A stretch of DNA of 64,000 nt from an uncultured virus (IMG/VR IMGVR_UViG_3300025030_000083) (IMGVR_UViG_3300025030_000083:1-64000), one strand, 5' to 3'; shown: positions 24,581 through 61,252, counted from the stretch's first letter. Numbers and translations are program-made. The notes: generated by a model not told the origin, from the letters alone.

Positions 24581-24603
24581 AAAAATATTTGAAAAGGGGT
24601 AAA

Positions 24604-42448: not shown

Positions 42449-43279
42449 ATGAACGAACCAGAAAATATTTGGGGTAAATTATCTGATATCTCGATAGCAA
42501 GAATTCAGAATTTTGAACCTCCTGATGGGTACTACATCGCATTTTCTGGTGGAAAAGATTCTGTGGTGATATTGGATTTAGTTAAAAGAGCAAAAGTTAA
42601 ATTTGATGCCCATTATAATTTAACTACGGTGGATCCCCCTGAATTGGTTAAGTTTATTCGTGATCAACACCCTGAAGTTCATATATCGTACCCCGAAATA
42701 AGTATGTGGGGCTTAATAGTAAAGAAAAGAATGCCTCCTACCAGAGTAGTACGATATTGTTGTGGATATCTGAAGGAGAGAGGGGGGGGGTCCGACAGAT
42801 TAGTGATGACTGGAATTAGGGCACAAGAATCAAATAAAAGATCCAAAAGAGGAATGGTAGAAATTTGTAGACGAGATCATAGTAAAAGATATCTACATCC
42901 TATTATTGATTGGTCTATTGGCAACGTTTGGAGTTATATAAAATTCAACAATTTATCGTATTGTAAATTATATGATGAAGGATTTAAAAGATTAGGTTGC
43001 ATTATGTGCCCATTACAGACTACTAAGCAAATGATAAGAGATGGGGAAAGATGGCCAAAATATAGAGAAGCGTATATTAGGGCTTTTCAAAGATGTATAG
43101 ATAAAAGAAATATAGACGGATTGAAAGTAACCTCTGGTTTTTCTAAATGGGAAACTGGAGAAGAAATGATGAAATGGTGGCTAAATCAGAAAGAGTCGGA
43201 TAAGAATAAAATAATAAATGATAAGGAAGGGGGATTTTCAATATTCTGTCTTCTGAACGAAGAAGAAAACGATCAATAG
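42449..43279 (+). CDS. PAPS-reductase family (PP-loop, Fe-S) protein
   Basis: AFSGGKDS, RYCC..LKE, TGIRA.ES..R, PI.DW, LYDEGF.RLGC.MCP. Confidence 0.9.
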   Translation: MNEPENIWGKLSDISIARIQNFEPPDGYYIAFSGGKDSVVILDLVKRAKVKFDAHYNLTTVDPPELVKFIRDQHPEVHISYPEISMWGLIVKKRMPPTRVVRYCCGYLKERGGGSDRLVMTGIRAQESNKRSKRGMVEICRRDHSKRYLHPIIDWSIGNVWSYIKFNNLSYCKLYDEGFKRLGCIMCPLQTTKQMIRDGERWPKYREAYIRAFQRCIDKRNIDGLKVTSGFSKWETGEEMMKWWLNQKESDKNKIINDKEGGFSIFCLLNEEENDQ

Positions 43280-43302
43280 TAATTTAATATGATTTCGTGG
43301 GG

Positions 43303-43325
43303 AATCCTGTAGTAATAACTACAGG
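43303..43325 (+). promoter_or_regulatory. Partial promoter motif (AATCCTGTAGTA) embedded in a hairpin
   Basis: CCTGTAGT-AATA-ACTACAGG perfect 8-bp inverted repeat upstream of a GIY-YIG gene. Confidence 0.5.
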
Positions 43326-43356
43326 GGAAAAAGGCCGGGGAAGGTGGTGGTTATGC

Positions 43357-43994
43357 ATGGCATCTGGGGTGTATAGAATCACAAACAGGGAAAATAGAAA
43401 AATATATGTGGGGTCTACTAAAGATTTGTTTGGTAGATGGAACACCCATTTGCGATTACTTCGTAAGGGGATCAACCCTTGTCTTCGCCTTCAAGAAGCC
43501 TATAATGAATTTGGGGAAGAAGCATTTGTTTTTATGATAATAGAAATTGTTAAAGACAAATACAAATTGAAAAAAGAGAACAAATTTGGATAGATTACTA
43601 TAAATCATATCTTCCAGAAAATGGATATAATCTTTGCAGAATAGTTGCATCTTCGTATTGGTTTGATGAATCAAAACAAAGGTTGAGTTTAACCAGAAGA
43701 GGAGAAAATAATAATAGGTGGGGTAAACACCATAGTGAAGAAACTAAAGAAAGAATAAGATTATCCAACTTAGGAAAACGACGCACCGAAGAAAATAATA
43801 GGAATAATAGTTTAGCAAGGAAAGGAAAACCTCTGCCTGAAGAAACTAAAAGAAAAATGAGAGAAAAATGGTTAGATCCTGAGTATAAAAAAATGAGTGT
43901 AGATAAGATAAGAGAAAGATGGGCAGATCCCAATTATAAAAAGATGGTGTTGGATAAAAGAAAACAAAAACAATTACTTGTAGCAAAGGGGTGA
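43357..43994 (+). pseudogene. Frameshifted GIY-YIG/NUMOD3 homing endonuclease
   Basis: GVYRITN...IYVGS. One extra A in the A6 run near 43570 would restore KREQIWIDYYKSY...GYN and join ORF 43683..43994. Confidence 0.75.
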
Positions 43995-44102
43995 CTATGT
44001 CAGAAAGGAGGGGTGAATATTTTACTAGCAGCAACTTTAAGTTATCCCTATTTGTTGGCTGTAGTATGCAGTAGTACAAAAACTCTATTGGAGGGCAAAG
44101 TC

Positions 44103-44831
44103 ATGCCGAATTTTGACCCGAAGCTCGTGAAGAAAATTGTTCACAGTAAGTTAATCGCATGTGCTACAGAAGTTGGGGTCAAGAATGCAGACAAGGTTTC
44201 CAAGGAACTTTTGATCCCTGCGTTTCTTGACGCAGTGGAAAAGGCCGAGGTGGATGCCCCTGGAACCTTCAATGCAAATATTATCAACCTGTACAATGAG
44301 ATTCTGACTACTTTGGGTCTGGATCAGGGAGAGGAAGCCCCCCCAGAGACAGAACTGGAGCCGCCTCCTGCTCCTGAGCCGCCCCCCCCGCCTCCTCCAA
44401 TTGCAGCCCGTCGTGTTGGACGTCCTCCTGCGGCTCCTGCCCCGGCTCCTGCTGCTCCTGCCCCTGTAGCGAGTACCCCAGCCCCGGCTCCCCCGGCACC
44501 GGCTACGACAGCACCTACCCCAGTAGCAGCTGCTCCTGCTGTGGCAAAGGCCCCGGCTTCCGCAAAGGCCCCCAAGCCCCCCAAGGAGAAGGTTGCTCGG
44601 AAGGGTCCGACTCCCAAAGCGTTCAATCGTTGGTCATCTTTGGGGGGCACTCTTACTGCGTTAAAAACGGGGACTATCGAGGAGTTGGTAGCGTCGGCTA
44701 ATCAGCATTATATTGATCAGGGCGGAAAGAATAACGCAAAGGAATCTGCTACGGTGGTGAAGTCCTCCTTGAATGTTTTAGAAAAGATGGGGGTAGTCAC
44801 TGTGGCCAACGGGTCGTTCACGGTTAATTGA
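44103..44831 (+). CDS. Pro/Ala/Lys-rich linker protein with a winged-helix-like C-terminus (paralogue of 4386..4745)
   Basis: GGAGGG RBS before ATG 44103, long PAPA linker, C-terminal T+EELV..AN..Y...NN.KE+...V.S.L..L..MG. Confidence 0.65.
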   Translation: MPNFDPKLVKKIVHSKLIACATEVGVKNADKVSKELLIPAFLDAVEKAEVDAPGTFNANIINLYNEILTTLGLDQGEEAPPETELEPPPAPEPPPPPPPIAARRVGRPPAAPAPAPAAPAPVASTPAPAPPAPATTAPTPVAAAPAVAKAPASAKAPKPPKEKVARKGPTPKAFNRWSSLGGTLTALKTGTIEELVASANQHYIDQGGKNNAKESATVVKSSLNVLEKMGVVTVANGSFTVN

Positions 44832-45145: not shown

Positions 45146-45988
45146 TTGATTCAATTTCATAGGGAAACAGATTACGCAAATTTGAAGTTAGAAAATATCC
45201 CCCGAGAGTTTTGGCAATACTTTCCTGATTGCCACGGTAAAAAGATTTTCGTAAAGCCCAATCTAGTTTGCCCTCCTACAAAATGGGATATAGCATCTAC
45301 TACTAGAGTTGAAGTTATTTCTATAGTAATTGAATATTTAATGAATAATGGAGCTAATGATATAGTAGTGGGAGATTGCGGATTTAAAGACCAATTCGAG
45401 TACACAATTAAATTATCTGGATATGACCAACTTCCAAAACGATACGGAGTTCAGTTAATAGGACTTCAAGAAGGCCCAAGATTTCACGAATTTACCTTGC
45501 ATAGAAGAGATGGGTATCTATCATTATTTGGGGCTAAATTTTCTAACACGATGCTAGAATGCGATTTTGTTATCAACGTTCCCAAACTAAAGGTTCATAA
45601 TATTGCAATTGTAACGGGGGCTATAAAAAATACGATGGGCATGATGGCCCAAAAGGGAAGCATGCATCCTCGCGGAAGTTATGATATTCTTCATAAGAGA
45701 CTCCATGATTTATATTTTCTTATCAAAGATAGAATAGCTGCTTGCGTAATGGATGGTATAGTGGGATCAGAATATTCAGAACAATGTGGGATACCCAAAC
45801 CAGCAAATGTTTTAATTTCCTCAAAAGATATGTGGGCAATGGACGTGGCAGCTTCTTTAATCATGAATATTTATCCATCTGATGTTCCCTATTTGGAATA
45901 TATTAGGAAATCTCTGAATAAATATTTTAGTGAAGTTATCGTCCCCGTAGAATATTGTTCTCCGTTTGAACTCCCAGTGGGGTATTGA
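45146..45988 (+). CDS. DUF362 family protein
   Basis: K+FVKPNL, D.VINVPKLKVH...VTGA+KN.MG, DG+VG, D..A+D..A..+M. Confidence 0.85.
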   Translation: MIQFHRETDYANLKLENIPREFWQYFPDCHGKKIFVKPNLVCPPTKWDIASTTRVEVISIVIEYLMNNGANDIVVGDCGFKDQFEYTIKLSGYDQLPKRYGVQLIGLQEGPRFHEFTLHRRDGYLSLFGAKFSNTMLECDFVINVPKLKVHNIAIVTGAIKNTMGMMAQKGSMHPRGSYDILHKRLHDLYFLIKDRIAACVMDGIVGSEYSEQCGIPKPANVLISSKDMWAMDVAASLIMNIYPSDVPYLEYIRKSLNKYFSEVIVPVEYCSPFELPVGY

Positions 45989-46421
45989 TGAAAGAAAATA
46001 CTAGGATTAAGGAGAATCAATAAATGGATGGAGAATTTCCATTTAGTCTAGACACCTATAATATGTGGGACGAAAGTTGTAAGAATAAAAATATTACTAA
46101 AAAACAGAGAGATACATTATTTATTGAATTAGAGTATTTTTATTCTCGTGTAAAAATAGCTCACGTTATTACATATCTTAATGGTTTTGTTGGGGCTGGT
46201 ACACTAATAAAACCAACTTCTCATATAATACCCAATATCAATAAAATTTGGATTTACAATGTGGGATTTAATTTAAAGGGCGATAAAATTATTCCTATTT
46301 ATAACGCAGAAATGACAATAGATGAAGCAGAAGACCAAAAAAGATGTTTACAAAAAGTTTTGGGGAATTTTAGTCTAAAAGATAGAAAAGGTCCCTTCGA
46401 ATTAAAAGAAAAGGCCGTATC

Positions 46422-46829
46422 TTGAAAAAAGATATTAGAGAATTAAAATTTGGTTCCATCGTAGGATTTCGTTCAGATAGTCTTTGTTGTCCTCAAGCAT
46501 TCGGGGGGGATTGCTTTGCTGGTTGCAGTGCAGGTTGCAATTGGATGTGTCTATCAGGAGATACACCAATTAACTTATCAAATGGTACTTCTAAACCTAT
46601 AGAAGAGTTGAAAGTAGGGGATAAAGTATTAACTTATAATGAAAAAACATTTGAAGTAGAATCTAAATTAATTAAACATACTATGAATAGGAGTTCAGAA
46701 ATTATCAAAATAAAAATAGGAAATAAATTATTGAAAATAACTAAAAATCATAAAGTATTTACTGATCGGGGGTGGGTGGAAGCAGGGGAATTAATAAAGG
46801 GGGATAAAGTATTAATTTATGAAAAATGA
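46422..46829 (+). CDS. Radical SAM enzyme 1, N-extein plus split-intein N-half (IntN 46548-46826)
   Basis: ...GCSAGCNWM|CLSGDT (block A), IEELKVGDKV, block B ITKNHKVFT..GWVEAGEL, then stop. Confidence 0.9.
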   Translation: MKKDIRELKFGSIVGFRSDSLCCPQAFGGDCFAGCSAGCNWMCLSGDTPINLSNGTSKPIEELKVGDKVLTYNEKTFEVESKLIKHTMNRSSEIIKIKIGNKLLKITKNHKVFTDRGWVEAGELIKGDKVLIYEK

Positions 46830-47799
46830 AATCCCTACTTGCATAGATTGTGGTAAAATAGTTTGGAGGGGCACTTCTAAAAGATGTTGGGATTGTTGGA
46901 AAAAATTAGTATCTATAAAAGACCCTAGATGTAGACCTACCCCTAAAATTAAGCCTAAAATAGTATCCCATTGCGTTGTTTGTGGGGAGGAAATTTTTAA
47001 GGATCATAAACATTGTAGAAAATGTTGGGATATTTTATTAACCACCGATCAAAACCCGATGAAATTAAAAAAGAAAAAATACCCAGAAGGATCTTTAGAA
47101 TCAGTTATTTGTATTTGCGGTTCTAAAAAATGTTCGGGGAGCAAAATTTGTATGAGCTGTAGAAAAATAGAACTATCTTCAGATAAAAATCCTTGCCATA
47201 ATTCTAATAATTTCTTTAAAAGAACAAATCCTATGAAAGATCCTAAAATTTTAGCAAAATCCTTAGTTAGTCATAGAAAAACCTATGCTCAAGAAGGATA
47301 CGTTCATCCTAATACGGGGAAGAGAAACGAGTGGTCTATAGAAAGAATGACTAATAATAATCCAATGAAAGATCCTATTATAGCTGCAAAATCTTCTGGG
47401 GAACGACATTGGTCCCATACTCAACCTGAAAACTTTGCTAAACACTTAAAAAATATATTCGCTATTTTAAATACTAACGGCCATATATCAAAGGGACAAA
47501 AAGCATTATATTCCGCTTTGAATAATTTAAAAATAAAATTTTTCCCCGAACAACAATTTATTTTCAAAGGAGAACCGTATTCTTATATTTTCGTAGATGC
47601 CTACGACCCGATAAACAACATAGCTTGGGAATATGACGGGTTTTATACTCATCGAGATGGGAAAGGACCAAAATTAGATTCTATAAGAGACCGATTACTG
47701 AAATTTTGTTATGGGGTTAAAACTATCCGAATATTGCCAGAAGACCTCCCAAATTTAGAAAGTATAATCGTGGAGAAATTGCAATGCTTAAATGGGTAG
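46819..47799 (+). CDS. Free-standing homing endonuclease (Zn-finger and NPMK repeats plus Vsr/DUF559-like nuclease) between split-intein halves
   Basis: CxxC repeats, NPMKDP repeats, SKGQ..LY, VDAY....IAWEYDG.Y.H, D..RD. Confidence 0.85.
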   Translation: MKNEIPTCIDCGKIVWRGTSKRCWDCWKKLVSIKDPRCRPTPKIKPKIVSHCVVCGEEIFKDHKHCRKCWDILLTTDQNPMKLKKKKYPEGSLESVICICGSKKCSGSKICMSCRKIELSSDKNPCHNSNNFFKRTNPMKDPKILAKSLVSHRKTYAQEGYVHPNTGKRNEWSIERMTNNNPMKDPIIAAKSSGERHWSHTQPENFAKHLKNIFAILNTNGHISKGQKALYSALNNLKIKFFPEQQFIFKGEPYSYIFVDAYDPINNIAWEYDGFYTHRDGKGPKLDSIRDRLLKFCYGVKTIRILPEDLPNLESIIVEKLQCLNG

Positions 47800-48965
47800 A
47801 AATATCAAAAGTTATGCCTGAAGAAGAAACTATTCAAGTATTTAATATAGAAGTGGAAGATAACCCCAATTATTTTGCAGACGGGGTACTAGTTCATAAT
47901 TGTTTTTGTAGAGAAATGGAGGCAGGACTATATAACCATTATTATACGGGGTGGACAAGAGATTTAGTAAGGGCCTGTAATCCAGATGACTTTAAACAAT
48001 TATTTGATAAAGCCTTTGGATCAGATAAATATTACGATAATTGGAATATTCAATGTCTTCGTAGAGGACTCCCTTTTAATATGGGAAGCAAAGCAGAAAC
48101 ATTCTGTTTAGAAGATATGAGGGATAACGTAGTTGTCCCAGTTCTCAAATTATTCAAAGAATATAAAGTACCCATGATCATCGAAACGAAAAGCCATTAC
48201 GTCGGATTAAAAAAATATTTGGACCTTCTGAAAGATATAAACGTAGCTATTATCATTTCTATCATGGGGGGAAGTGACACTCTGAATTATAAATTGGAGC
48301 CGGGATTACCTCCCCCATCTATGAGATGGTCCCTAGTTAAGACGCTAAACGACATGGGTATTTGGACGGCTGTGCGTTGGGAACCAATCCTAGTGGGAAT
48401 CAATTCAAAAGAAGACATGTTGGAAGGGTACGCTGAGATGGCATCTCGTACTGGAGCTAAACATGTTAGTTTTTTCAATTATCGAACGTCAAATTACAAA
48501 ATAGCTCAAAAAGAATTCGAAAGCAGAGGATATAATTACGTCAAACTTTTGGAAAAGAATCTAGATGAAAATTGGACTCCCGTAGGAAAACAATTTAGAG
48601 AAATTTTGAAAAATAAAAACGTCCCTGCGTCCTCCCCTGATTTTGTAAATTTTCCATTTAGTAATTCTTGTGAAAGTTGTTGTGGAGTTGATGGGCTATT
48701 CGTTCCCTACGAATTTACTTTTCAACATGCTTGTAAAATAATAATGGAAAAGGGGTTAGTTTGTTGGGATGATATGGAAGCAATAACCTTTCGACAGCCT
48801 GAGGCTTATGATCGAATGAAAGAAATTTGGAATGGAAAGGGACAATATTTCTCTTTGAATGATAGCCCAGAAATTAAAGTTTTAGATAAAGATAAAAATG
48901 GTATGAATATTTATGGAAGAAAAGAAGAAGGCTCCGTTGAAGATAAGAAAGGACTTCTATTTTGA
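47784..48965 (+). CDS. Split-intein C-half (47784-47900) plus C-extein of radical SAM enzyme 1 (SplB/Rv2578c-like)
   Basis: [38 protein letters not shown]....R...+K.L...GI....R.EPI. Confidence 0.9.
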
Positions 48966-51229
48966 AAAGAATATTAGTAACGGGGGGAGCCGGTTTTATT
49001 GGATCTCACCTATGTAAAAAATTATTGGAATTGAGAAATGAAGTTATTTGCTTAGACAATTTTTTTTCTTCTACCAAAAAAAATATTATTCCATTAATGA
49101 CTAATCCTAATTTTGAATTATTACGTCATGATGTAACCTTTCCCCTATATATTGAAGTAGACGAGATATATAATCTAGCGGCTCCGGCATCCCCAATTTA
49201 TTACCAAAAGGACCCCGTTCAAACCACTAAGACGATAGTTCACGGGGCTATAAATATGCTAGGATTAGCCAAGAGGACTAAAGCTAAAATATTGCAAGCA
49301 TCCACATCAGAAGTATACGGGAATCCCCAAGAACATCCTCAAACGGAGGAATATTGGGGCAATGTAAATCCAATCGGAATTAGATCATGCTATGATGAAG
49401 GGAAAAGATGTGCAGAGACGTTATTTTTCGATTACTACAGACAAAATAATGTTCCCATCCGGGTGGTTAGAATATTCAATAGTCTTACGGGGGACCAAAA
49501 AGTTATTTACTATAAAAATGGTATTTTAAAGTATAAAAAATTTATAGATTGCTATGACGATATAAAAAATGAGATAGAAAATATAATAGTTCCTTGCTTT
49601 GGTAAAGATAACCGATATGTTCTTTCCCCTATTAGTGGAATCCATAAACATAAAGTGACAAAAAACGGCTACGAATTATTTTTAACTTGGGGAAAACAAA
49701 TAAAATTGACGGAGGATCATGGAGTTTTCATTTTAAATAAAAATCAGAAAATTCAAGAAAAATTTGTCAAAGATTTGGTAATTGGTGATATTATTGCTAT
49801 ACCAAATCAAATAAAATGGATAGATATTCCATTAATGCCATTTAAAATATCAAATATTCTAAAACAAGATTTTAATTTTTATGTATCTAATGATGATGAT
49901 TTAGAAAGGATTATTAACAATAAATATTTTATAAATAAATGTAAACAAAGTGGTGTTGGATTACCATCAACTATAAATAATTTCAAAAGAGTCAAAAGAA
50001 TAAAATCCAGTTTTCTCAAAAGTAATAATATTATACTAAACTCCAATGATTATATCGTTCTAGATGATTCTAAGCATATTATTAAAAATAATATTAATAT
50101 TATGGAGGAATTTTTGTGGTTTTTAGGTTTTTATGTTGCAGAAGGAAGTTTAGTAAATAATAATGGGGGGGATTATCAATTACATTTTTATTCTGATTTG
50201 AAATACCTTCAAAAATTAAATCAAATAATTTATAATTTATTTGAATTAGAAACAAAAATTTATTCCTCAGATACAAAACCTCATATTTGTATTCGTAGTA
50301 AAATCATTTTTGAATTGGTAACTAAATATTTTGAATTTGGAATTAAAAAACAACTAGAAAAAATTATTCCAGATTGGATTATACAATTACCCAAAGATCA
50401 ACTTAAATGGTTCCTTTTAGGATTTTGGGAAGGGGATGGAAACCACGATGCTAAAACTACTGGTAATAAATTAATTTTTAGTTCATCTAGCATAAATTTG
50501 ATAGACAATTTAAATTTAATTTTATTAAAATTTGGGATAATTGGGAGTACCTGTTGCTATTATACTACATGCAGTAAAGATAATCCCAAACTTTATAAAG
50601 GATACTTAATAACGGTGCAAGGATTAAGCCATTATGATATATCTAGATTAGATACCGTAGTTCAAAAATTACAAAGAAAAAAGAATAGCGATATTCAATG
50701 GGCGCATATCAAAGATATAAAAAAATTTGATTTAATAGAAGAGAATGTTTATGATTTCTCCGTGAAAAATTTTGAAAATTTTATTGGAGGAGATTTAATA
50801 TCTTGCCATAATACTTATGGCCCCAATATGAAAATAAACGATGGAAGGGTAGTATCTAATTTTATAGTTCAAGCATTAACGAGTAAACCTATAACCATTT
50901 ATGGAAATGGAAAACAAACTCGATCTTTTTGCTATATAAGTGATACTGTGAATGGTTTGATATCTATGATGGAACAGGATAAATATGTGGGCCCTATTAA
51001 TTTGGGGAATCCAGAAGAATTGAAAATAGTGGACGTAGCAAATCTCATAGTAAATTTAACCGAATCTGATTCTAAATTAGAATTCAAATCTTTGCCATTA
51101 GATGATCCTACTAGGAGAAAGCCAGATATATCTTTGGCCAAAGAAATATTAAAATGGAGGCCAAAAGTAAATTTTAAAGAAGGATTGCAATATACAATAA
51201 AATATTTTAAAGATACGTTAGGGAGATAA
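48962..51229 (+). CDS. UDP-glucuronate decarboxylase (UDP-xylose synthase-like extended SDR) containing an intein
   Basis: [46 protein letters not shown]|intein|[19 protein letters not shown]. Confidence 0.92.
49481..50812 (+). mobile_element. 444-aa intein with LAGLIDADG endonuclease
   Basis: Ser1 SLTGDQ, block [15 protein letters not shown] and [14 protein letters not shown]...SCHN|T. Confidence 0.9.
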
Positions 51230-51553
51230 AATGGGAATTTCGGTGACTAGAACTATTTTAATAAATAATGATATGCTAGAGGTTGATAATCAAAGATTGT
51301 ATACAGCTAAATGGGAAGTTCTTCAATTTATCAAGAGAATTCCAAAAGGAACTTATTATACAGTAACATATACATTGGATGAAAAGGGACCACTTTTGGT
51401 GGTTAAAAAATTAATAATGATCGTAGTAAATATCAAAACGAAAGAGGATATGGGAGCTTGTTTTTTACCAAAAACTTGGGATGGAAAAAGGGCGAGGAGA
51501 TGCGTGACCGTGCCAATATATGAAGATATACAATAAATATTATAAATTTTAGG

Positions 51554-51579
51554 GTGAAACGACAAGAAATCCTGTAGTA
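51554..51579 (+). promoter_or_regulatory. Phage promoter-like motif, copy 3
   Basis: GTGAAACGACAAGAAATCCTGTAGTA, intergenic. Confidence 0.7.
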
Positions 51580-52674: not shown

Positions 52675-52965
52675 CCAAATACGAATTGACTTTAAATATT
52701 GAAGTTTCTAATATGGAAGAATGGAAATTTGTAAGCGATTTGGCTATGGCCGAAGATAGTAAACATTGGTGGGCAGCGGGGACATATGATGACGAAGGAA
52801 TTATGTATAGGGATATGGAATGGTTATTCGATACTAAGTTAGAGGCGTTAGCATTTAAAAGAAAATTGAAAAAAGCATTTTTCAGATATTGGTATAAAAT
52901 AGAAATTGATATTGACGAATTTGATGAAAATGAATTGGAAGAAGAAATAGGAGATATTAAAATAA

Positions 52966-53517
52966 ATGAAATTATTTAACGGATATTGGGAGTTGCGTGA
53001 ACTGGTGAAGAACATCATCCCAAGAAGAGGAATGCTGGACTTTCTAGAAAAACATAAAGGACTAGTTAAAGAAAAGGGTAGAAAAATTGGATACAAGGAA
53101 TTTTCATTCGATAGTGAAAAATTTGAAATAAAACAAAGATTGCTCAATAAAGATGAAATTACTTCTTTCCTTGAAGTGAGCCTAAGAAAAAATCATTGCC
53201 CCATGCCCCTTAATGCAGATGTTTATGATGCACTATACTGCATAGCAAAAGGTCAATTGATTACTACTAAAACAGGATTCAAAAAAATTGAAGATATAAA
53301 GGTGGGGGATGAGATAGCCTCATATAACGAATCGACCAAAAAAGTAGAGTTTACCCAAGTTTTGTTATCATCTTCTTCAGAAAAAACTAATTTAGTAGAA
53401 ATAGAAACTGAAAAAGGACTTCTAGTTGTTACGGAAGATCACCAAATTTTTACCAAACGAGGGTGGGTAGAAGCCGGGCAACTTAATGAAGACGACTTAC
53501 TTTTGGAGATATATTAA
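52966..53517 (+). CDS. Radical SAM enzyme 2, N-extein plus split-intein N-half (IntN 53239-53514)
   Basis: ...ADVYDALY|CIAKGQ, IEDIKVGD, VTEDHQIFTKRGWVEAGQL, then stop. Confidence 0.9.
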   Translation: MKLFNGYWELRELVKNIIPRRGMLDFLEKHKGLVKEKGRKIGYKEFSFDSEKFEIKQRLLNKDEITSFLEVSLRKNHCPMPLNADVYDALYCIAKGQLITTKTGFKKIEDIKVGDEIASYNESTKKVEFTQVLLSSSSEKTNLVEIETEKGLLVVTEDHQIFTKRGWVEAGQLNEDDLLLEIY

Positions 53518-54662
53518 TGGGTAAACGAGGACCAGCCAAAGGCTGCATTCCTTGGAATAAAGGGAAAACAGGGGTGCAAGCAGCTTGGAATAAAGGTATT
53601 CCAAGGACAGAAAAAGAAAAAGAAGCTATCAGAAATGGAATATCAGAAGAATCCCGACAAATTCAATCTGAAATAAAGAAAGAACAATGGAAGCAAGGAA
53701 AATATGATAGTATGTTCGGAGATACTAATCCTGCCTGCAGAGAAGAAGTTAAGAAAAAAATAGGAGATGCTAATAGAAGAAGAATTTGTTCAGAACAGAC
53801 TAGGGAAAGGATATCAAAATCCCGGACGGGAAAACCGGGGGCAATTTGGACAAAGAAAATGAAAGAAAATGCCTCTGTTAGAATGAAAGAAAATAATCCT
53901 ATGAAAGATGAAGAGATTAAAAATAAAAGTCATGAATCTCTAATGAAAACATTAAATGATCCTAATTTTGTTCACCCAAATAAAGGTAGATTAAGGCCTG
54001 ATTTATTAGGAAAACCTAGCAAAATGTCTGAGGAAGCCAAGGATATAGCTTCTGCTAGAATGAAGGAAGATAACCCCATGAAGGTTCTGGAGATAAGAAA
54101 TAGAATGATCGAGTCTTATAAAAGAACTTGTGCTTTAGATGGTTATGTACATCCTAATAAAGGAAGAGAACGTTTGGATGCTAAGAATAGAATGTTATCT
54201 AATAACAATCCCATGAAGGATCCAGAAACTGCTAGACTAGTTTGGGCTAAAGCAAAAGAAACCATAAAGAAAAACGGGGGGATATCCGAAGGGCAAAGGA
54301 AACTTTATGAATATTTAGATTCTATGGGATTTAAATACGAACCGGAGTGCTTCTTTCAATTGGGACAATTAGATTTTTCTTATATTCTTGCCGATGCTTA
54401 TTTGCCGGATTTTAAAATAATTATAGAATACGATGGTTATAGTGACCATTATTCAGAAGAGGGGATAAAAAGAGATCGTAAAAGAGATGATTATGTAGAT
54501 AAATTATTTCAAATATCAGTCATAAGAATAGACACTAATTCTATTTTTGCTAAAGATGTGGATAAAACTATTTTAAAAGCCATTGACGAACTTAAAACAG
54601 TTTCTTCCCCTAAAACTATTTACATTGGAAAAATCAGGGAGATTTTAATAAATGCAAACTAG
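53517..54662 (+). CDS. Free-standing homing endonuclease (NPMK repeats plus Vsr/DUF559-like nuclease) between split-intein halves
   Basis: PWNKG, NNPMKD repeats, SEGQ..LY, ADAY.....IIEYDG...H, D.KRD. Similar to 46819..47799. Confidence 0.85.
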   Translation: MGKRGPAKGCIPWNKGKTGVQAAWNKGIPRTEKEKEAIRNGISEESRQIQSEIKKEQWKQGKYDSMFGDTNPACREEVKKKIGDANRRRICSEQTRERISKSRTGKPGAIWTKKMKENASVRMKENNPMKDEEIKNKSHESLMKTLNDPNFVHPNKGRLRPDLLGKPSKMSEEAKDIASARMKEDNPMKVLEIRNRMIESYKRTCALDGYVHPNKGRERLDAKNRMLSNNNPMKDPETARLVWAKAKETIKKNGGISEGQRKLYEYLDSMGFKYEPECFFQLGQLDFSYILADAYLPDFKIIIEYDGYSDHYSEEGIKRDRKRDDYVDKLFQISVIRIDTNSIFAKDVDKTILKAIDELKTVSSPKTIYIGKIREILINAN

Positions 54663-56352
54663 ATTTAAGAAAATAAAAAGTCTACGGAAAATTAGTAAAC
54701 CTACTGCTGTATTTGATTTAACTGTAGATAGAAATAGCAATTTCTTTGCATCTTCCCAATTAGTTCATAATTGCAGCTACGCATGCAAATATTGTTTACC
54801 TCCTAAAACCAAAATACAAATGTGGAATGGTATAAAAAAGAATATAGAAAAAATTAAAGAGGGAGATGAGGTTGTTTCTCTAAATACTTATAATAGTTTA
54901 TTGATAGAAGAAAAATCAATCGTTCAAAAAATAATGAGCAGAGCTACCGAAGACTTAATAGTTATCAAAACTAAAAATAATATTCTAAAGTTAACCCCAG
55001 AGCATACAATATTTACTACTAGGGGTTGGATAGAAGCAAATAAATTAAATATGCATGATATGATGATATCCCCATATTATTCTAAATCTAATAGTGTTTC
55101 TAAATGGGAATGGAGTAGAATTGAATCTATATCTAGAGCAAAAACTAGTGGTAAAAAAATAGTCTATAATTTTGAGTGTCAACCTAATAATAATTATTTT
55201 GCAGAGGGAATTCTTGTACATAATTGTTTTGCGGACTCTTTTCGCAGTTCTCTTTATACTTCATTCTTTGATAACCCCAAGGAAATTGGAATACGCCACT
55301 GCCGTCCAGAATACTTTCGAGCAGAGATGGATAAATTAATGCCATATAGGGGAAAGAAAATAGATGGCCCAGAATTAAATAAAGCAATCAGTCTACAAAT
55401 TCCCATCCGTCTAGGAATTCGATTTGAAGATTTTCTTCCTATCGAAGCTCAAAAAGGAATCAGTTTGAATTTTATGCAATATTTATCTGATATTGCATAT
55501 CCCATAATGGTGAACACTAAGTCTGCGTTAATCGGAAGAGAAGATTACGTTAGGGCACTAGCAGATAATAAAGGTGGTGCTGCTGTTCATATGACGGCGA
55601 TATCTTCAGATGGTATTCTAAATAAAAAGTTGGAACCTGGCGCCCCGTCTTTTGAGAAACGCATGCTTGCTGTAAAAGCCCTTACGGATGCAGGGGTTAG
55701 GGTTGTCGCAAGGATCGAGCCATTCATGGTCTTTGTGAACGATGATCCTTATTATGTTCAAAAATGGATACAGGGAGTCAGGGAAGCAGGGATTAAACAT
55801 ATCACTTTTGATACATATAGCTACTCCGCTTCTGCCCCTGGAGTTGAACGCCAAATGGAAATGGAAGGAATAGATTTTCGTAGAATGTTTTTGCTAATGT
55901 CAGATAGTCAGTGGTTGGGTTCTTTGATTTTAGGAGAATTTATGAAAATGATGAAATCCGAGGGATTTTCAACTTCCACCTTCGATTTCGGGAATTCCCC
56001 GATCAATAATGATGAAATCTGCTGCTCCGTATCAGATGTTTACTTACCCCTGGGTGGAGGGTTCTCCTACGGGAACAACATGATTGCTGCTAGGTTTGTT
56101 CGGGATAACGGACCCCACCCAGTAACGTGGGGGAAATATAACGCTTTCGTAGAGGAACGTGGGGGGTGGTTATCAGAAACCTTAATGCAAGAAGTAAAGA
56201 ATTCGTGGAATCTTGGGGGACATCAAGCATATCAGGTGGATTGGGCCCAGGGAATTGAACCTTATGGAAGAGATCGAGAAGGAAATATAGTTTGGAGATA
56301 TATTGAAAGTTCTGACTTCCGCTTAGAAATGTTAGAAAATTTGGTCCGGTGA
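54652..56352 (+). CDS. Split-intein C-half (54652-54771), 7-aa extein, cis mini-intein (54793-55224) and C-extein of radical SAM enzyme 2 (SplB/Rv2578c-like)
   Basis: VFDLTV..NSNFFA..QLVHN|CSYACKY|CLPPKT...LTPEH...NYFAEGILVHN|CFADS. NTKS, KLEPGAPS...R..A+K.L..AG+.V..RIEP. Confidence 0.9.
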   Translation: MQTRFKKIKSLRKISKPTAVFDLTVDRNSNFFASSQLVHNCSYACKYCLPPKTKIQMWNGIKKNIEKIKEGDEVVSLNTYNSLLIEEKSIVQKIMSRATEDLIVIKTKNNILKLTPEHTIFTTRGWIEANKLNMHDMMISPYYSKSNSVSKWEWSRIESISRAKTSGKKIVYNFECQPNNNYFAEGILVHNCFADSFRSSLYTSFFDNPKEIGIRHCRPEYFRAEMDKLMPYRGKKIDGPELNKAISLQIPIRLGIRFEDFLPIEAQKGISLNFMQYLSDIAYPIMVNTKSALIGREDYVRALADNKGGAAVHMTAISSDGILNKKLEPGAPSFEKRMLAVKALTDAGVRVVARIEPFMVFVNDDPYYVQKWIQGVREAGIKHITFDTYSYSASAPGVERQMEMEGIDFRRMFLLMSDSQWLGSLILGEFMKMMKSEGFSTSTFDFGNSPINNDEICCSVSDVYLPLGGGFSYGNNMIAARFVRDNGPHPVTWGKYNAFVEERGGWLSETLMQEVKNSWNLGGHQAYQVDWAQGIEPYGRDREGNIVWRYIESSDFRLEMLENLVR

Positions 56353-56732
56353 AAAATAAAGGATTCTTTTCAAGACACTGGAGCGAATCTGACGAAAGAG
56401 TACTCAAATATTTGGGGGACTTTTTCAAAGATCCTCCGATTAAACCAGATTATAAAGCTGGATACGACGTTACGGTGGGAGATGCAAAGATAGAAATAAA
56501 ATCGTGCCAAGAATGGATACATTCAGAAAGTGTTAAGGGAAAATGGAAGAGAAGAAGAGGGAGATTCCACTTTGATAAGGGAACAGAGGCCGATATGATT
56601 TTATTTGTATTAGTCAAAGAATCGGGGGAGTTGGAATTTGCTATCCGATTTCCAGAACAATATGGAGTACGGAAATTGAAAATACCTATAACGATATTAT
56701 GGAATAAAGTATTTACAGAGGCGAGGATATGA
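56349..56732 (+). CDS. Small PD-(D/E)XK-type nuclease-like protein (paralogue of 3400..3783)
   Basis: GYDVTVGDAKIEIKSCQEW, RRRGRFHF, DMILFVLV. Confidence 0.55.
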   Translation: MKNKGFFSRHWSESDERVLKYLGDFFKDPPIKPDYKAGYDVTVGDAKIEIKSCQEWIHSESVKGKWKRRRGRFHFDKGTEADMILFVLVKESGELEFAIRFPEQYGVRKLKIPITILWNKVFTEARI

Positions 56733-57950
56733 ATTTACGTTGTTTTTGGGGAATTCATAAGCCTGTTGCTACCAATCCTAAAAGGGGGATATTAATAGGG
56801 GGAACCCATTGTAAAAGATGTGGGAGTATTCTAACTAATCCCATAGAATGGCCTAACCCCCTTCCTTCGCAAACTATTCAACCTTTTTGTGAAAACTCTA
56901 AATGCCCTATATGTCATTCTAGCCCTATATATACCTATTTTTGCTTAGGAATACGTTGGGATTTAGAAACAAAATATCCGTATTATATACCAAATGAAAA
57001 TTTAAAATGCCCCTACGGAGAAAAAGGGCATCTCCATCGTAGTTGTTCTTGTAAATATAAGTGGGTGGAAAAAACAGCCATAGATGCCGAATTAACGGAA
57101 GGCGAATAAATGGATTATACAAAAAAATTGATCAAGGCTGCTAAAGATTATTTAAGGGCATCTACTTGCAATTGTAAATATAATGGCGGTTGCCCACAAG
57201 AAGTTTTGCAATCTTTAATAGATGAATATAAACCTCCTCTAATTATTCCTACCAAGAAAAAGAAAGGTTCCAAATGAAACTGAAAATTGTTAGTCCTACA
57301 GGATTGGTCAAAGATGTTAAAGTGGTTAATGCAGAAACCAACGAAATGCTTGATGATGTTAAGGAATTTACCATCCATGCCAAATCCAATATGGGATTAG
57401 TAGAAGTTTCAATTAAATTTTCTCGTTTAGCTTTTGAAGTAACTGCGGAAAAAAAGAAAAGAACAAAGAAACCCAAATATCCTGACTCTACTGCATATTC
57501 TAAAAGTTGTATAGAGGCCAACAAAAAAACAGTTATGGATGGGGAGGGGAGAGTTGATTTAGACTACGTGGAAAATCATGGGGTGAATCCTAATGATCGC
57601 CTCAGTTGGTATATGTGGCGATATTTTATCAAAATATATTCTGAAAATAAATTAACTAAAATAAAAGTTCCAGATATTGTAGATTTCATTAGAAGAGAAT
57701 TTGGGCCAGATCAATCAGCAATTGAATTTAAGTTTGACAGGACGACTGCAAATCATTGCATAAATAAATTTTGTTTCATTGGACTATTAAATAAACATAA
57801 AAAATCAGATGAATGCTTTTATACTTTCTCCAACTCCGTAAAAAGAAGGGGGTTAGAGTGGTTTTTACAAGGGAATAAATATATGAAAGGCCATTTTCAA
57901 TCGGGAGCAGAGGGGTTTTTTAATCTATTGGAAATAAAGGAATAAAAATA

Positions 57951-58154
57951 ATGGCTTCTGGGATATATGTAATAGTTAATAAAATAAATAGAATGATGCA
58001 CGAACCTTGGAGCAAAGAAAGAAAGACCAAATTATCGGAATTCAAAATAAAATATTATCAAGAACATCCTATGAGCAAAGAAACTAGACAAAAAATGTCA
58101 GAAGCTAAAATAGAATATCATAGAAAAATGAGGGAGAAAAAAATTGAAAAATGA
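57951..58154 (+). pseudogene. Internally deleted GIY-YIG/NUMOD3 remnant
   Basis: MASGIYVIVNKIN joined directly to SKETRQKMSEAK repeats. The YIG motif and catalytic core are missing. Confidence 0.6.
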
Positions 58155-58452
58155 ACTAAAAATAGAGAGGTCATTTCCAATCGGACACACAAGGATTATT
58201 CAATCTACAGGATGTTACAAATGAATCTTAAAAAAGAAGGAAAAGATTTAGTCCAACGGGGGGTTAAATTGGGGAAATCTTTTGTATTAACAATTATATT
58301 ATTATTGCAATTGGCCATTCAAGTTTGTATACTATTCTTTACTGTATGGATAACCGTATTTACCAAGGGGAAGGAAATTGCAGATAGAAAAACATTTGAG
58401 ATATCCAAGGGATCTACAGTTCCTATGACTCTATTTCCAAGGGGGAATTGAA

Positions 58453-59283
58453 TTGGGACTTCGAAATGAATTAGAGGTTGAAAGGGTATTCACTTACGGA
58501 GTTGCTTTGGAACAGGGGGGTACTCAAAAAAACGCTGTATTCTGTTGGGAAAATATCATTTATATTATGAACTCCGATAAGACTATACTACTTCGGTTTG
58601 AAACATCGGTTAATGAATTCAAAGACCCCATTAGATTTTTCTTGAGCGATTATGATTCCCCAAATTTTACTGCGGACGGAAGTAATATAACTTTCCTTCA
58701 AAAAGGGGAGGAATTCATACGTAGCAAGAGATGCCGAATCCCCAATCAAACTTTTCAAGAAGTTGAAGAATTGTTTTATAAATTTTATAGTCCTGATAAA
58801 ATGAAATGGAAAATTTCCTTTAGCAAATCTTCGTTGGATCTCTTGGACGAGAATTTATCGCATATTGAATTTGTAACTAAAGGGGGGGAACTAAAAATAC
58901 TCCAACGAGATATCTATGTCGGATCTCTAATCCAACTCGAAAGAAAAATGGAAATGGAGGGCCTCGGCCTAACAGAACCAGAAGATGTTCTTCCAGATTC
59001 TCTTTCCCCCATGGGAATGAGGACTGGTGATTTCTTGGCACTATTTAATTTCAATGAGAAGGTAGACATTTATTTTCCAGAAGAACTGCAATACTTTATA
59101 ATTGAGGGATTGCATAATAATATATCAGGGGTTATTGCGGGGTGCATTTATGACGACTGCGGGACAATAGCTGATTTAGGGGAGGTTATGCATGGGCGGA
59201 AAAAGTCGGAAAACGGGGAGTATATCCAAAAAGTTAGTCGAACGGTTGCTGAGCCAATCCTCAAAAGGAGGAAAATCATCTAA
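58453..59283 (+). CDS. Hypothetical protein
   Basis: 276-aa ORF in the replication block. No family recognised. Confidence 0.6.
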   Translation: MGLRNELEVERVFTYGVALEQGGTQKNAVFCWENIIYIMNSDKTILLRFETSVNEFKDPIRFFLSDYDSPNFTADGSNITFLQKGEEFIRSKRCRIPNQTFQEVEELFYKFYSPDKMKWKISFSKSSLDLLDENLSHIEFVTKGGELKILQRDIYVGSLIQLERKMEMEGLGLTEPEDVLPDSLSPMGMRTGDFLALFNFNEKVDIYFPEELQYFIIEGLHNNISGVIAGCIYDDCGTIADLGEVMHGRKKSENGEYIQKVSRTVAEPILKRRKII

Positions 59284-59394
59284 GTCGGGGGTTTCTCCAA
59301 AGGGATTATTGGATAAGGGGGGACTTGATTGGACGAAGGATTTTCCTGGGGATGAGGAAAGAAAGAAACGCGAAGCCGAGGGAGGGGGAAATAA

Positions 59395-59838
59395 ATGAAT
59401 CCCGACGATATGCTCACAGGACGCGAGATGGACGCGCTGGTGGCGGAGAAGATCATGGGGTCTGTGCCATGCGACGGATGGAGTCGCTTTCATATAGGCG
59501 AGATGATGAATGACATGAAGTGTGAGCATGAAATGGGCAAGTGTTTCCCAAAGAAAGCTGGGCCTCCGATGTATTCCACCTCCATTTCCGCTGCGTGGCA
59601 GGTCATGGAGCATTTCAGACAAAACCAATGGAAAGTAAGCGTTATTGGTAATGAATGGTATGACGGAGCGTCGTGGATTTGTGTTATGAGAGACGCGATA
59701 GGCGAAGAGAGGGGAACCGGGATCGACAAAAAGTCATGTACTGTCGTTGATGGTAAGCAGGGATGGGATGAACCGTCCGCCCCTCTCGCCATCTGCCGCG
59801 CCGCGCTGAAGACGGTGGGAAAAAATGAGACTTTCTAA
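59395..59838 (+). CDS. Phage ABA-sandwich domain protein
   Basis: RE+DALVAE.+MG, P.YST.I.AAW.V+E, APLAIC.AAL. GC-richer than its flanks. Confidence 0.8.
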   Translation: MNPDDMLTGREMDALVAEKIMGSVPCDGWSRFHIGEMMNDMKCEHEMGKCFPKKAGPPMYSTSISAAWQVMEHFRQNQWKVSVIGNEWYDGASWICVMRDAIGEERGTGIDKKSCTVVDGKQGWDEPSAPLAICRAALKTVGKNETF

Positions 59839-60445
59839 TTGTACCCACGAAGTACCTCCCTTTGCCCTATGTGGGATATGCGAACCAGAGGAATTGAAGT
59901 CAATACTTAAAGAGATAAATCGACTATGGGGAAAGTTAGATGGCCCATGCCCCTATTGCAAAGTAAATGGTCCCTGCAAACATTGGTCTGGATGTGGATG
60001 GTCCGCCTCGTTTAAAACTGTAGAGGAAAAAATATGAACGAAATTGAGTTTGTTAAAAGTGTTCAAACGCTAGAAGTTAGAGAAAACGATCTAATGATTA
60101 TCAAGATTCCTTACAAAATTAAACCAGAAAATTCTGAAAAAATTAGAAAACTAGCAGAAGATAATTTGCCTATAGGAATGAAAGGAAAAGTAAAAATATT
60201 CATCCTTGAAGAAGGGGTTGATATAGGAATTATACGAGCAGAGGAGGATAACCATAAATGTGTCAAGAATGTAGTTGGGAAAATTTCATAGAAGAAATAA
60301 ATGATTATTTATCAGACCCAGATTACGATTGGGCCGAAGAAACGCTGTCGGGGATTGCAAATACTGTAGAAGAAAATAGTCATGTAACGGATAGGCAAAA
60401 AGAAGCGGTGGAGAATATCGTTGAGGCTGTTGAAAGGAAAAGTCG

Positions 60446-61252
60446 GTGAAAAGTAATTACTTAAAATTGCTTGAGAAATATAAAATTACTCCAACTTTTC
60501 CATGCAGTCAAGAATATTTTGAACGATCTGGAATTGAAGAGCAAACTTGTGGAGATTATGTATATTGGAAACAACACGAGTGGTTCATAGGGCCGCCAAT
60601 AAATTCACTAACGGGGGAGTTAGTTAAAAGCCCTCCTTCAGATTGGATTATTCCCATGAACAAAATTTGGGCTTGTTTTCATAATTGGGAAATGTCCTCA
60701 GATTATAAGAAGGAATTTTTATCCTTTGAGTATATCTATGATCCCAAAAACTTTTTGAAAATGGAAGGGGGTCGTTGGTCTATCTTTAGGAAAAATATTC
60801 GCAAATTCCCTGGCCGATATGGGAATGCCCCCCTACGATATATTGAAGCAACCTCTGATCATGAGGAGGATTTGAAAAAGTTATTTCTGGAATGGGTTGG
60901 TACCAAGGGGGAAGATCAAGAAATACATGATGATGAAGTTATGCTAAATTACCTTTTTCATGGTAATAATAGAAAAATTTTGGTAGATAAAAATAATTAT
61001 ATTTTGGGGGTAAATATATGGGATTTGGGGTACTCCCAAATTTATTTCCGGTTCAATTTCTCCCGAAATATCAAATTTTTAAACGAATATTTGAGATATA
61101 TTTTCTATACAGATCCTATCATATTGAACCAAAATAAATTGGTTAATGATGGGGGATCTCTAGATAACAAAAATCTTGAGGCATTTAAGGACAAACTTTG
61201 CCCTTTGGAAAAAAGGGAAATTTTTTCTTATATCAAAATGGAGGAAATATGA
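60446..61252 (+). CDS. DUF2156-like (GNAT-fold, lysyl-PG-synthase C-terminal-like) protein
   Basis: EYIYD....LKMEGGRW..FRKNIRKF, and +NDGG......L..FK.KL.P. Confidence 0.6.
   Translation: MKSNYLKLLEKYKITPTFPCSQEYFERSGIEEQTCGDYVYWKQHEWFIGPPINSLTGELVKSPPSDWIIPMNKIWACFHNWEMSSDYKKEFLSFEYIYDPKNFLKMEGGRWSIFRKNIRKFPGRYGNAPLRYIEATSDHEEDLKKLFLEWVGTKGEDQEIHDDEVMLNYLFHGNNRKILVDKNNYILGVNIWDLGYSQIYFRFNFSRNIKFLNEYLRYIFYTDPIILNQNKLVNDGGSLDNKNLEAFKDKLCPLEKREIFSYIKMEEI

Follow-up and report, generated by a model that had tools for sequence, protein, structure and literature searches.

We analysed a window of 64,000 bases, namely bases 1-64000 of the 75,291-base virus record IMGVR_UViG_3300025030_000083 (G000) in IMG/VR, and in it a block of genes at 42449-61252. 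An earlier note on this DNA had read several genes of the block as one pathway of oxygen-independent DNA hypermodification: two radical S-adenosylmethionine (SAM) proteins (RS1 and RS2), a DUF362 protein, a UDP-xylose synthase (UXS), a protein resembling 3′-phosphoadenosine-5′-phosphosulfate (PAPS) reductase and a DUF2156-like protein. The results indicate that these genes are a conserved module with later additions and not a single pathway. The conserved unit consists of RS1, RS2, a PCNA-like protein, a short peptide starting with MGGKSRK and the DUF2156-like protein, kept in fixed order inside replication operons; the PCNA-like clamp and the peptide had been missed by the earlier note, as had the split-intein arrangement of the radical SAM genes. 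We tentatively favour the reading that this core directs a replication-coupled, tRNA-dependent, radical-SAM modification of DNA that would dispense with hydroxymethyl-pyrimidine enzymes. Also new here are the separation of the add-ons from the core, the link between UXS and glycosyltransferases, and the doubly fractured radical SAM genes.

Five genes are conserved in fixed order within replication operons

IMG/VR was scanned with an RS2 alignment, which yielded 128 relatives, and the best 80 loci were kept for tallies of gene content (hidden Markov model or phmmer matches at E ≤ 1e-5). RS2 was present in all 80 loci, followed by the clamp-like protein (75), RS1 (70), the DUF2156-like protein (70), the beta-clamp (65) and DnaB (62), and every miss of RS1, the clamp-like protein or the transferase fell in a locus that ended too soon. 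RS1, the clamp-like protein and the DUF2156-like protein occurred together in 53/53 loci having at least 3.5 kb on either side of RS2. DUF362, in contrast, was found in 8 of the 80 loci, PAPS reductase in 1, UXS in none, and the small open reading frames (ORFs) of the window's lineage in 0-3. The co-occurrence across phages that the earlier note had proposed as a check was thus borne out for RS1, RS2 and the DUF2156-like protein, whose clustering is far beyond chance, and failed for UXS, PAPS reductase and DUF362, whose clustering is not. This separation shows which five genes matter for experiment.

A set of 12 IMG/VR loci, found with an RS1 alignment and close by comparison with the wider 80, was compared by blastp. 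RS2 and DUF362 were each detected in 11 of these loci, a homolog of the clamp-like protein in 10 and a homolog of the transferase in 9, the misses being truncated loci or the most distant phage; UXS and PAPS reductase were detected in none. In the wider set gene order was invariable, reading DnaB-(Pro/Ala-rich protein)-(DUF362)-RS1-slot-RS2-clamp-like protein-transferase-beta-clamp, with median gaps of 808 nt from RS1 to RS2, 5 nt from RS2 to the clamp-like gene and 73 nt from the latter to the transferase gene. The MGGKSRK-x-G peptide was encoded in 68/70 loci having both the clamp-like gene and the transferase gene, at a median length of 52 aa. The same block was found in a distant phage (L024) that encodes a polymerase of family B and a primase of the AEP type; its RS1 and RS2 are 36% and 35% identical to those of the window. 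An upstream 306-aa ORF of this phage was considered as a DUF362 protein and rejected.

The module was found in viral and metagenomic sequences. All 88 RS1 homologs (at least 41% identity) are metagenomic, and in the Atlas the viral clusters had 157, 76 and 82 members, with module neighbours in clusters that were 86-100% viral. Against 50,697 phage records, megablast of 42449-61252 returned nothing, tblastn of RS1 found no cultured phage carrying it, and tblastn of RS1, DUF362, RS2 and the L024 transferase gave no match or partial ones (22-32% identity) to unannotated 'Bacteriophage sp.' records. Among genome contigs of 185,579 species, the RS1 alignment found nothing and the RS2 alignment only five contigs of metagenome-assembled genomes, under five different phyla-level labels, which are probably binned phage contigs. 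Sequence searches of the PDB with RS1, o268, DUF362, o276, the A2 profile and an endonuclease ORF returned nothing significant. Literature searches on DUF2156, radical SAM enzymes and phage DNA hypermodification, covering abstracts and excerpts, turned up no account of the module, and no paper listed for DUF2156 concerned phage by its title or opening abstract; the metagenome mining tables that supplement PMC8989533 and PMC13219725 could alter this negative.

RS1 and RS2 have a partial TIM-barrel radical SAM fold

The structural comparison revealed a partial TIM-barrel radical SAM fold, for which spore photoproduct lyase (SPL) was the nearest solved structure by VIA-align Z. By sequence, RS1 and RS2 scored 38.9-49.7 bits against the Rv2578c/PA0069 radical SAM families of NCBIfam (cut-offs 360-430), which places them outside these families, and neither had an SPL-specific family match in Pfam or NCBIfam. 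Against PF04055 (gathering score 29.5), the C-terminal ORF of window RS2 scored 22.3 bits, and among relatives the RS1 of L004 scored 19.3, the RS2 of L013 21.6 and the RS1 of L024 31.0 bits. After removal of both inteins, the cluster motif of RS2 reads C-SYA-C-KY-C (CxxxCxxC). In the RS1 family C35, C39 and C42 were invariant across 25 sequences, 24 of them with CxxxCxxC; the window allele (46422-46547) has one residue extra (C-SAG-C-NWM-C, CX3CX3C), a feature shared among the 25 only by P0068. Compared with SplB (PDB 4FHC-4FHG), with which they are 12% identical, the module proteins carry an additional conserved CPQ/CPM cysteine plus a CC pair, and a C-terminal domain and tail are added. The tail of RS1 is disordered (pLDDT below 50 at 386-395). 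Its consensus is basic-GLLF for the near clade, and RS1 proteins of the wider set have AG-hydrophobic ends; such tails could dock to a clamp.

These features bear on an improbable alternative, in which RS1 and RS2 would be SPL-like lyases that work from a clamp of their own and reverse a DNA lesion amenable to radical repair, with the transferase and the peptide as helpers. The SPL-like fold, the name 'DNA repair photolyase' given by the Joint Genome Institute to several RS1 homologs, and the replication-operon setting with a clamp-like partner are consistent with repair. Repair, however, has no need for an aminoacyl-tRNA-type transferase, an invariant peptide or a swappable PLP/reductase/methyltransferase slot; moreover, the two paralogs are always retained together, and by score both proteins fall outside the SPL and Rv2578c families.

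A clamp-like protein, an invariant peptide start and a DUF2156-like protein complete the core

The model of the product of 58453-59283 has a predicted two-domain clamp fold. By Foldseek, the best matches listed were PCNA and other clamp chains (E down to 6.4e-10, probability 1.00, TM 0.43-0.53). Since a separate beta-type clamp gene closes the module downstream, these phages would have two types of clamp. The peptide encoded next has an invariant MGGKS(R/S)K start, a Lys-rich middle and a variable remainder, and many copies have a G-hydrophobic-hydrophobic patch close to the end. In L024 the peptide (MGGKSSKGG, at 13510) lies between a position-equivalent 238-aa ORF and the transferase gene.

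The DUF2156-like protein of the window had no Pfam match at E ≤ 1, while 4 of 9 orthologs matched PF09924 (best 9.7e-6) and the L024 transferase reached 40.6 bits (cut-off 27.5), with an hhalign link to the family at 96.4%. Over residues 1-268, the Atlas model of the window protein aligned with bacterial and archaeal PF09924 clusters (TM 0.81-0.83), and on this modelled structure the protein belongs to the DUF2156/LPG_synthase_C fold family. The C-terminal domain of MprF and the fungal ErdS/ErgS enzymes are of this kind, sharing the Pfam family with the orthologs and the fold with the window protein; unlike them, as described in excerpts of PMC7334510 and PMC8913301, the phage protein is soluble and stand-alone, has no membrane or aminoacyl-tRNA synthetase domain and is encoded in a replication operon.

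This relationship raises an alternative to which we give the least credence of all: the DUF2156-like enzyme would, in the manner of MprF, aminoacylate a lipid or an RNA of the host, and the targets of the radical SAM proteins would be RNA or a metabolite, not phage DNA. It agrees with the lipid and sterol targets of the studied DUF2156 enzymes (PMC7334510, PMC8913301, in the parts cited) and with the presence of RlmN and TYW1 among the Foldseek fold matches. Against it, the 268-aa transferase lacks a membrane domain and matches the soluble domain over its whole length, and its linkage with the clamp-like protein in replication operons is strict.

The main alternative, although on the unlikely side, is a peptide-directed pathway with the MGGKSRK peptide as its substrate or scaffold, following scaffold-peptide ('pearlin') logic. 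The DUF2156-like enzyme would aminoacylate the peptide near its N terminus, on the amine, a Lys or a Ser, and the radical SAM proteins and the slot enzyme would remodel it. The outcome would be either a modified peptide that binds the clamp or DNA, or a small molecule that is set free. The invariant start with a variable remainder, in 68/70 loci and again in L024, fits this, as does the overlap of the peptide gene with the clamp-like gene. The best Foldseek E-values of RS1 were obtained with the peptide-acting radical SAM enzymes PFL-AE (1.9e-8) and SuiB (5.9e-7), and aminoacyl-tRNA transferases of the same superfamily act on peptides (FemX and L/F transferase; excerpt of PMC13219725). Such a pathway leaves unexplained the fixed position within replication operons of two replisome types, the extra PCNA-like protein and the ranking of SPL as best fold match by Z, and the scanned loci showed no sign of a RiPP recognition element, a protease or an exporter.

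The core may modify newly replicated DNA

In the tentatively favoured reading, the core would modify DNA as follows. The transferase would draw its amino acid from the charged tRNA of the host, and the radical SAM pair would make or rearrange the bond to a base in DNA that has just been replicated. The enzymes would be kept on this fresh DNA by the extra clamp and perhaps by the peptide as well, the slot enzyme would complete the group, and no hydroxymethyl-pyrimidine precursor would be required. A thymidylate-synthase-type hydroxymethylase (PF00303) was found in 0/5 relatives' records (CheckV rates two of these as 97% complete or more) and in none of the window ORFs scanned; the route would therefore start differently from all described thymidine pathways. 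Pfam holds models for the 5-hmdU DNA kinase and aGPT-Pplase, and neither family appeared among the Pfam matches of the scanned ORFs, with ORFs below about 80-100 aa and some no-match ORFs remaining.

The proposed chemistry has an analog in the Elongator subunit Elp3, in which a radical SAM domain plus a GNAT domain makes cm5U on tRNA. Radical SAM chemistry, a GNAT-fold acyl-donor site and a C-linked group on a nucleobase would be common to both, as a chemical analogy only; unlike the module, Elp3 combines its activities in a single polypeptide, with acetyl-CoA as donor and tRNA as target. Elp3 is named as a radical reaction in the excerpt of PMC13219725. In the 5-NedU pathway of Pseudomonas phage M6, described in part in PMC8989533, gp51 is an amino-acid transferase, gp52 a PLP enzyme and gp53 an SPL-like radical SAM isomerase that isomerises glycine on thymidine in DNA. 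Like M6, the module combines a phage SPL-like radical SAM protein with a PLP enzyme for an amino-acid-derived group on DNA, here proposed from genes alone, in a gene cluster whose tailoring enzymes are swapped between lineages. Unlike M6 as so described, it has two radical SAM paralogs; no dUMP hydroxymethylase was found in the five records, the enzyme handling the amino-acid donor is of the DUF2156 family, and the set is enlarged by a PCNA-like protein and an invariant peptide.

The second precedent is Mom of phage Mu, a GNAT enzyme that transfers glycine from Gly-tRNA to N6 of adenine in double-stranded DNA (PMC13219725, in part). A GNAT-superfamily phage enzyme, a charged tRNA as donor, a DNA target and post-replicative action would be shared, as proposed for the module; Mom is a single-domain GNAT that works alone, whereas the module has a dual-GNAT DUF2156-type protein, two radical SAM proteins, a clamp and a peptide. 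With these precedents, an amino-acid-derived group is the best available reading of the hypermodification that the earlier note had suggested, and the sugar part of that suggestion was not supported.

The slot between RS1 and RS2 differed in content between phages. It held a PALP-family pyridoxal phosphate (PLP) enzyme in 31 loci (40.9 bits, cut-off 35), a methyltransferase-like protein in 14 (weak matches), an aldo-keto reductase in 6 (1.2e-40) and an N6/N4 DNA methylase in 3; a DAO-type FAD oxidoreductase, a dCMP deaminase and an amidoligase were found in 2 loci each and MT-A70 in 1. Homing endonucleases and proteins of no known family also occurred there, and in the window's lineage the slot holds UXS and fillers. 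The enzyme mix resembles that of thymidine hypermodification clusters as reported in the excerpt of PMC8989533. The 8 loci with DUF362 and the 31 with PALP in the slot did not overlap, in a set of related sequences, and DUF362 may replace the PLP step or the non-overlap may be purely phylogenetic.

Several observations weigh against a DNA-modifying core. The modified base is a proposal from gene content, and the 20 runs carrying the stretch, all kept as contigs, give no chemical or sequencing signal for it. The VIA-align margin in favour of SPL is only about 1.7 Z, and Foldseek E-value ranks PFL-AE and SuiB above SPL for RS1. The studied DUF2156 enzymes are aminoacyl-tRNA transferases that act on lipids or sterols, not on nucleic acids (excerpts of PMC7334510 and PMC8913301), and no consistent phage tRNA gene lies beside the module. 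The invariant start of the peptide argues for a peptide substrate. Because the slot also holds such ordinary phage genes as those for DNA methylases, a dCMP deaminase and homing endonucleases, it may be a mere insertion hot spot. Finally, homology of the 238-aa ORF of L024 with the clamp-like protein was not established (hhalign probability 1.4% and 3.8%; local hmmsearch E 0.0024).

We also considered the peptide as a carrier arm on the PCNA-like ring, a proposal that is speculative and more doubtful than a peptide-directed pathway: the MGGKSRK peptide would receive a tRNA-borne amino acid through the DUF2156-like enzyme, and the radical SAM proteins would couple this amino acid directly to a canonical base of replicating DNA. 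If true, this would be a new start of DNA hypermodification without hydroxymethyl-pyrimidine, kinase or pyrophosphorylase, and the first peptide-carrier step in nucleic-acid modification. If the core modifies DNA by whichever course, it would be a widespread, oxygen-independent route to hypermodified phage DNA that combines the field's two newest principles, an SPL-like radical SAM enzyme acting on DNA and an aminoacyl-tRNA donor, with relevance to restriction evasion, to sequencing bias in subsurface viromes and to enzyme discovery.

UXS, PAPS-reductase-like and DUF362 proteins are probable lineage accessories

Judged from the locus comparisons, a dozen small ORFs are lineage accessories, as are UXS, PAPS reductase and DUF362. 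The PAPS-reductase-like protein scored 38-61 bits against the CysH/APS/PAPS reductase equivalogs of NCBIfam (cut-offs 154-254), which marks it as a domain relative of PAPS reductase and not CysH. The relative L004, at 89% identity, has no such gene at this position, and 4/5 relatives' records lack it, PF01507 being found there only in G001, a record of the same phage as the window. DUF362, a member of the LarA clan (PMC11770544, in part), is restricted to a clade and was always immediately upstream of RS1 where present (median gap -13 nt).

As the earlier note had stated, the RS1 and decarboxylase genes overlap: the stop of RS1 overlaps the start of UXS by 4 nt (48962-48965). An intein-free UXS ortholog of a relative matched human UXS1 over its full length with 373 bits (1.4e-110, residues 2-309), the next enzyme family reaching 128 bits; UXS is a close ortholog of true UDP-xylose synthases. 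Among the five relatives' records, UXS was present only in G001 and G005, and GT1 and GT2 glycosyltransferases likewise only in these two; GT1/GT2 were absent from the record rated 100% complete by CheckV. No glycosyltransferase was present among the window ORFs scanned, in agreement with the earlier note, and the search of the rest of the genome that it had advised located these enzymes in the structural module of G001. There, surrounded by genes for capsid and tail, they have as neighbours a B12-binding radical SAM protein of 1058 aa and three or four methyltransferases (L030:7836-19291 and L031:14939-19157). They comprise a GT1/GT4 enzyme, a weak GT2 and a GT4+methyltransferase+GT2 protein of 991 aa. 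Another radical SAM protein, of 240 aa, is also encoded among these capsid and tail genes.

UXS most likely supplies UDP-xylose to the glycosyltransferases of the structural module, on the basis of only two closely related UXS-bearing records. Together, probably, with the FkbM methyltransferase, which is indeed encoded upstream (30242-30985), it is better read as feeding a virion or cell-surface glycan pathway. Sugar decoration of DNA is not indicated, because UXS co-occurs with GT1/GT2 of the structural module. One G001 glycosyltransferase, the GT1/GT4 enzyme, also matched PF20706 'GT4 in conflict systems' (3.6e-10), so that a DNA target is conceivable.

The single route of the earlier note, in which the PAPS-reductase-like protein, DUF362, RS1, UXS, RS2 and DUF2156 would jointly put a sugar- or amino-acid-bearing group on DNA, is accordingly very improbable. 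Its genes do form one co-oriented block, UXS occupies the slot where other phages have tailoring enzymes, and the PF20706 match could be counted in its favour. The conserved, ordered unit of RS1, RS2 and the DUF2156-like protein stands, but UXS (0/80, 0/12), PAPS reductase (1/80, 0/12) and DUF362 (8/80) fall outside it; UXS is close to true UDP-xylose synthases and tracks with glycosyltransferase genes among capsid and tail genes, and the PAPS reductase gene, which lies next to the remains of a homing endonuclease, is lacking in the relative at 89% identity.

The radical SAM genes are fractured by split inteins and endonuclease-like genes

The three intein-bearing genes reported earlier proved to be RS1, UXS and RS2, with four inteins in all: one split intein in RS1, one LAGLIDADG intein in UXS (Ser1, TEDH, HN/Thr+1), and one split intein plus one mini-intein in RS2. 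All four retain C/S1, TxxH and HN followed by C/T. By layout and splicing residues, RS1 and RS2 are 'fractured genes', each with a split intein and a free-standing endonuclease-like gene between its halves, and on this arrangement the halves must be rejoined by protein trans-splicing. Because the mini-intein lies only 7 residues after the split intein, the RS2 inteins precede the first and the third cysteine of C-SYA-C-KY-C. The two endonuclease-like ORFs are 35% identical and matched no nuclease family in Pfam; the product of the one in RS1 has zinc ribbons, NPMKDP repeats and a C-terminal nuclease-like domain.

In the relative L004 (89% identity), RS1 and UXS are intein-free, and RS2 has the mini-intein only. 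The intein-free RS1 of L004 lies at L004:9878-11065. An intein-free RS1 allele also occurs in the same samples as the intein-bearing one, since contigs of a related strain in runs X13 and X19 join 46469 to 47900. Many further short-sided contig joints (side 22-30) were seen near GIY-YIG genes in these two runs.

A contiguous intein is present in the UDG-PolA gene (G000 63780-64790), beginning in the window and continuing beyond it, and blastp relates the inner domain of this intein to the RS2 free-standing endonuclease (2e-5, 107 residues). One genome thus has this type of nuclease in three settings: as a free-standing gene, between the halves of a split intein and within an intein. In Dassa et al. 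2009 (PMC2677866), the listed hosts of fractured genes are DNA synthesis and repair enzymes and 'radical SAM' occurs 0 times; here the hosts are radical SAM genes, and RS2 has a second, contiguous intein 7 residues off within its Fe-S motif. As in that account, an intein-less split by a related endonuclease is also present, in the helicase gene at 16958-20743. This DEAD/ResIII helicase is split into two ORFs (16958-17881 and 18833-20743) by a free-standing DUF559-type endonuclease gene at 17878-18843 (25.1 bits, cut-off 20.6), and no intein halves are present, which makes it an intein-less fractured gene. Natural split inteins within an Fe-S motif are of interest for protein-ligation tools and for studies of intein spread.

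Gene layout and genomic context

The genes named by the earlier note were all recovered where it had placed them, on the + strand between DnaB/primase and clamp/UDG-PolA (Table 1), and every long ORF from 33 to 64 kb lies on the + strand.

Table 1. Features of the block and of its replication-gene surroundings (positions in the window)
Feature	Position	Strand	Evidence and remarks
ResIII helicase	33812-35221	+	Pfam/PHROG/NCBIfam
DnaG-type primase	37075-38085	+	Pfam/PHROG/NCBIfam
DnaB-like ATPase	39037-40608	+	Pfam/PHROG/NCBIfam
Replication initiator	41045-42442	+	Pfam/PHROG/NCBIfam
Block under study	42449-61252	+	Between replication initiator and beta-type clamp
PAPS-reductase-like protein, lineage-specific accessory	42449-43279	+	CC...CxxC cysteines; PF01507 5e-27, 95.5 bits (cut-off 22.5); phrog_424 9.5e-41
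GIY-YIG/NUMOD3 homing endonuclease, broken into ORFs 43297-43593 and 43683-43994	43297-43994	+	PF01541 2e-12 and PF07460 4.5e-8 on separate ORFs; adjoins PAPS-reductase gene
Pro/Ala-rich protein, often upstream of module	44013-44831	+	No Pfam family; phmmer homologs in 25/80 loci
DUF362 protein (LarA clan)	45146-45988	+	PF04015 6e-36, 124.8 bits
133-aa ORF, window lineage only	46024-46425	+	No family; 88% identical in L004; 0/80 loci
RS1, three ORFs	46422-48965	+	phrog_13321; NCBIfam Rv2578c/PA0069 below cut-off
RS1 N-extein 46422-46547 (ends GCSAGCNWM) and split-intein N-half 46548-46829 (starts CLSGDT, block B TKNH)	46422-46829	+	Hint/intein matches
Free-standing endonuclease-like gene between RS1 intein halves	46819-47799	+	Own ATG; overlaps both neighbours
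RS1 intein C-half 47784-47900 (ends VLVHN) and C-extein 47901-48965	47784-48965	+	Intein_splicing C-terminal block
UXS (UDP-glucuronate decarboxylase) with LAGLIDADG intein 49481-50812, in RS1-RS2 slot	48962-51229	+	Epimerase/GDP_Man_Dehyd
Lineage-specific fillers	51231-51536, 51602-51862, 52671-52979	+	Small ORFs common to L004 only; 0/80 loci
GIY-YIG/NUMOD3 homing endonuclease, intact	51919-52674	+	
RS2, three ORFs	52966-56352	+	Weak Radical_SAM; NCBIfam Rv2578c/PA0069 below cut-off
RS2 N-extein 52966-53238 (ends DVYDALY) and split-intein N-half 53239-53517 (starts CIAKGQ, block B TEDH)	52966-53517	+	
Second free-standing endonuclease-like gene, between RS2 intein halves	53517-54662	+	phrog_9084 'homing endonuclease' 4.4e-5
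RS2 split-intein C-half 54652-54771, extein CSYACKY 54772-54792, mini-intein 54793-55224 and C-extein 55225-56352	54652-56352	+	Two Intein_splicing stretches
Lineage-specific ORFs between RS2 and clamp-like gene	56349-56732, 56729-57109, 57274-57945, 57951-58154, 58212-58451	+	No families; 0-3/80 loci
PCNA-like two-domain clamp protein (predicted), conserved member	58453-59283	+	AlphaFold2 (AF2) pLDDT 78.3, pTM 0.77; 75/80 loci
Lys-rich 68-aa peptide, starts MGGKSRKTG, conserved member	59192-59398	+	Overlaps 3' end of clamp-like gene in other frame
Small lineage-specific ORFs between peptide and transferase	59395-59838, 59825-60037, 60034-60291, 60258-60449	+	59395-59838 with Phage_ABA_S domain
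DUF2156/LPG_synthase_C-like protein (dual-GNAT, aminoacyl-tRNA transferase family), 268 aa, conserved member	60446-61252	+	70/80 loci
Beta-type replisome sliding clamp, downstream border of module	61554-62618	+	phrog_947 2.9e-23, DNA_pol3_beta_2; 65/80 loci
UDG-PolA fusion	from 63489	+	

Record G001 matches G000 bases 28356-75291 at 99.998% identity and extends 43 kb further, and from this overlap and extension the phage genome measures at least about 118 kb. The CheckV completeness of 45% for the 75 kb record and 97% for the 90 kb record G001 is inconsistent with that size. The 20 runs carrying the stretch have groundwater, sediment or soil metagenome labels, and no RNA run is among those listed.

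Past the end of the window, the genes of G000 are those for a clamp loader, an SSB-like protein, FEN, a RecA-like protein and RuvC. A 375-aa ORF on the - strand (G000 68940-70067), overlapped by a long low-complexity ORF on the + strand (68853-70535), separates the region of the clamp loader from the gene of the SSB-like protein. The early region of the window encodes a cpYpsA SLOG protein (11097-11579), an ArdC-like antirestriction/zincin protein (11739-12614), a tRNA-Met (20844-20918) and an RtcB RNA ligase (24544-25812). A TnpB/IS605 OrfB-type gene (OrfB_IS605, Cas12f1-like TNB, HTH) at 5713-6927 lies on the - strand, opposite to all other genes.

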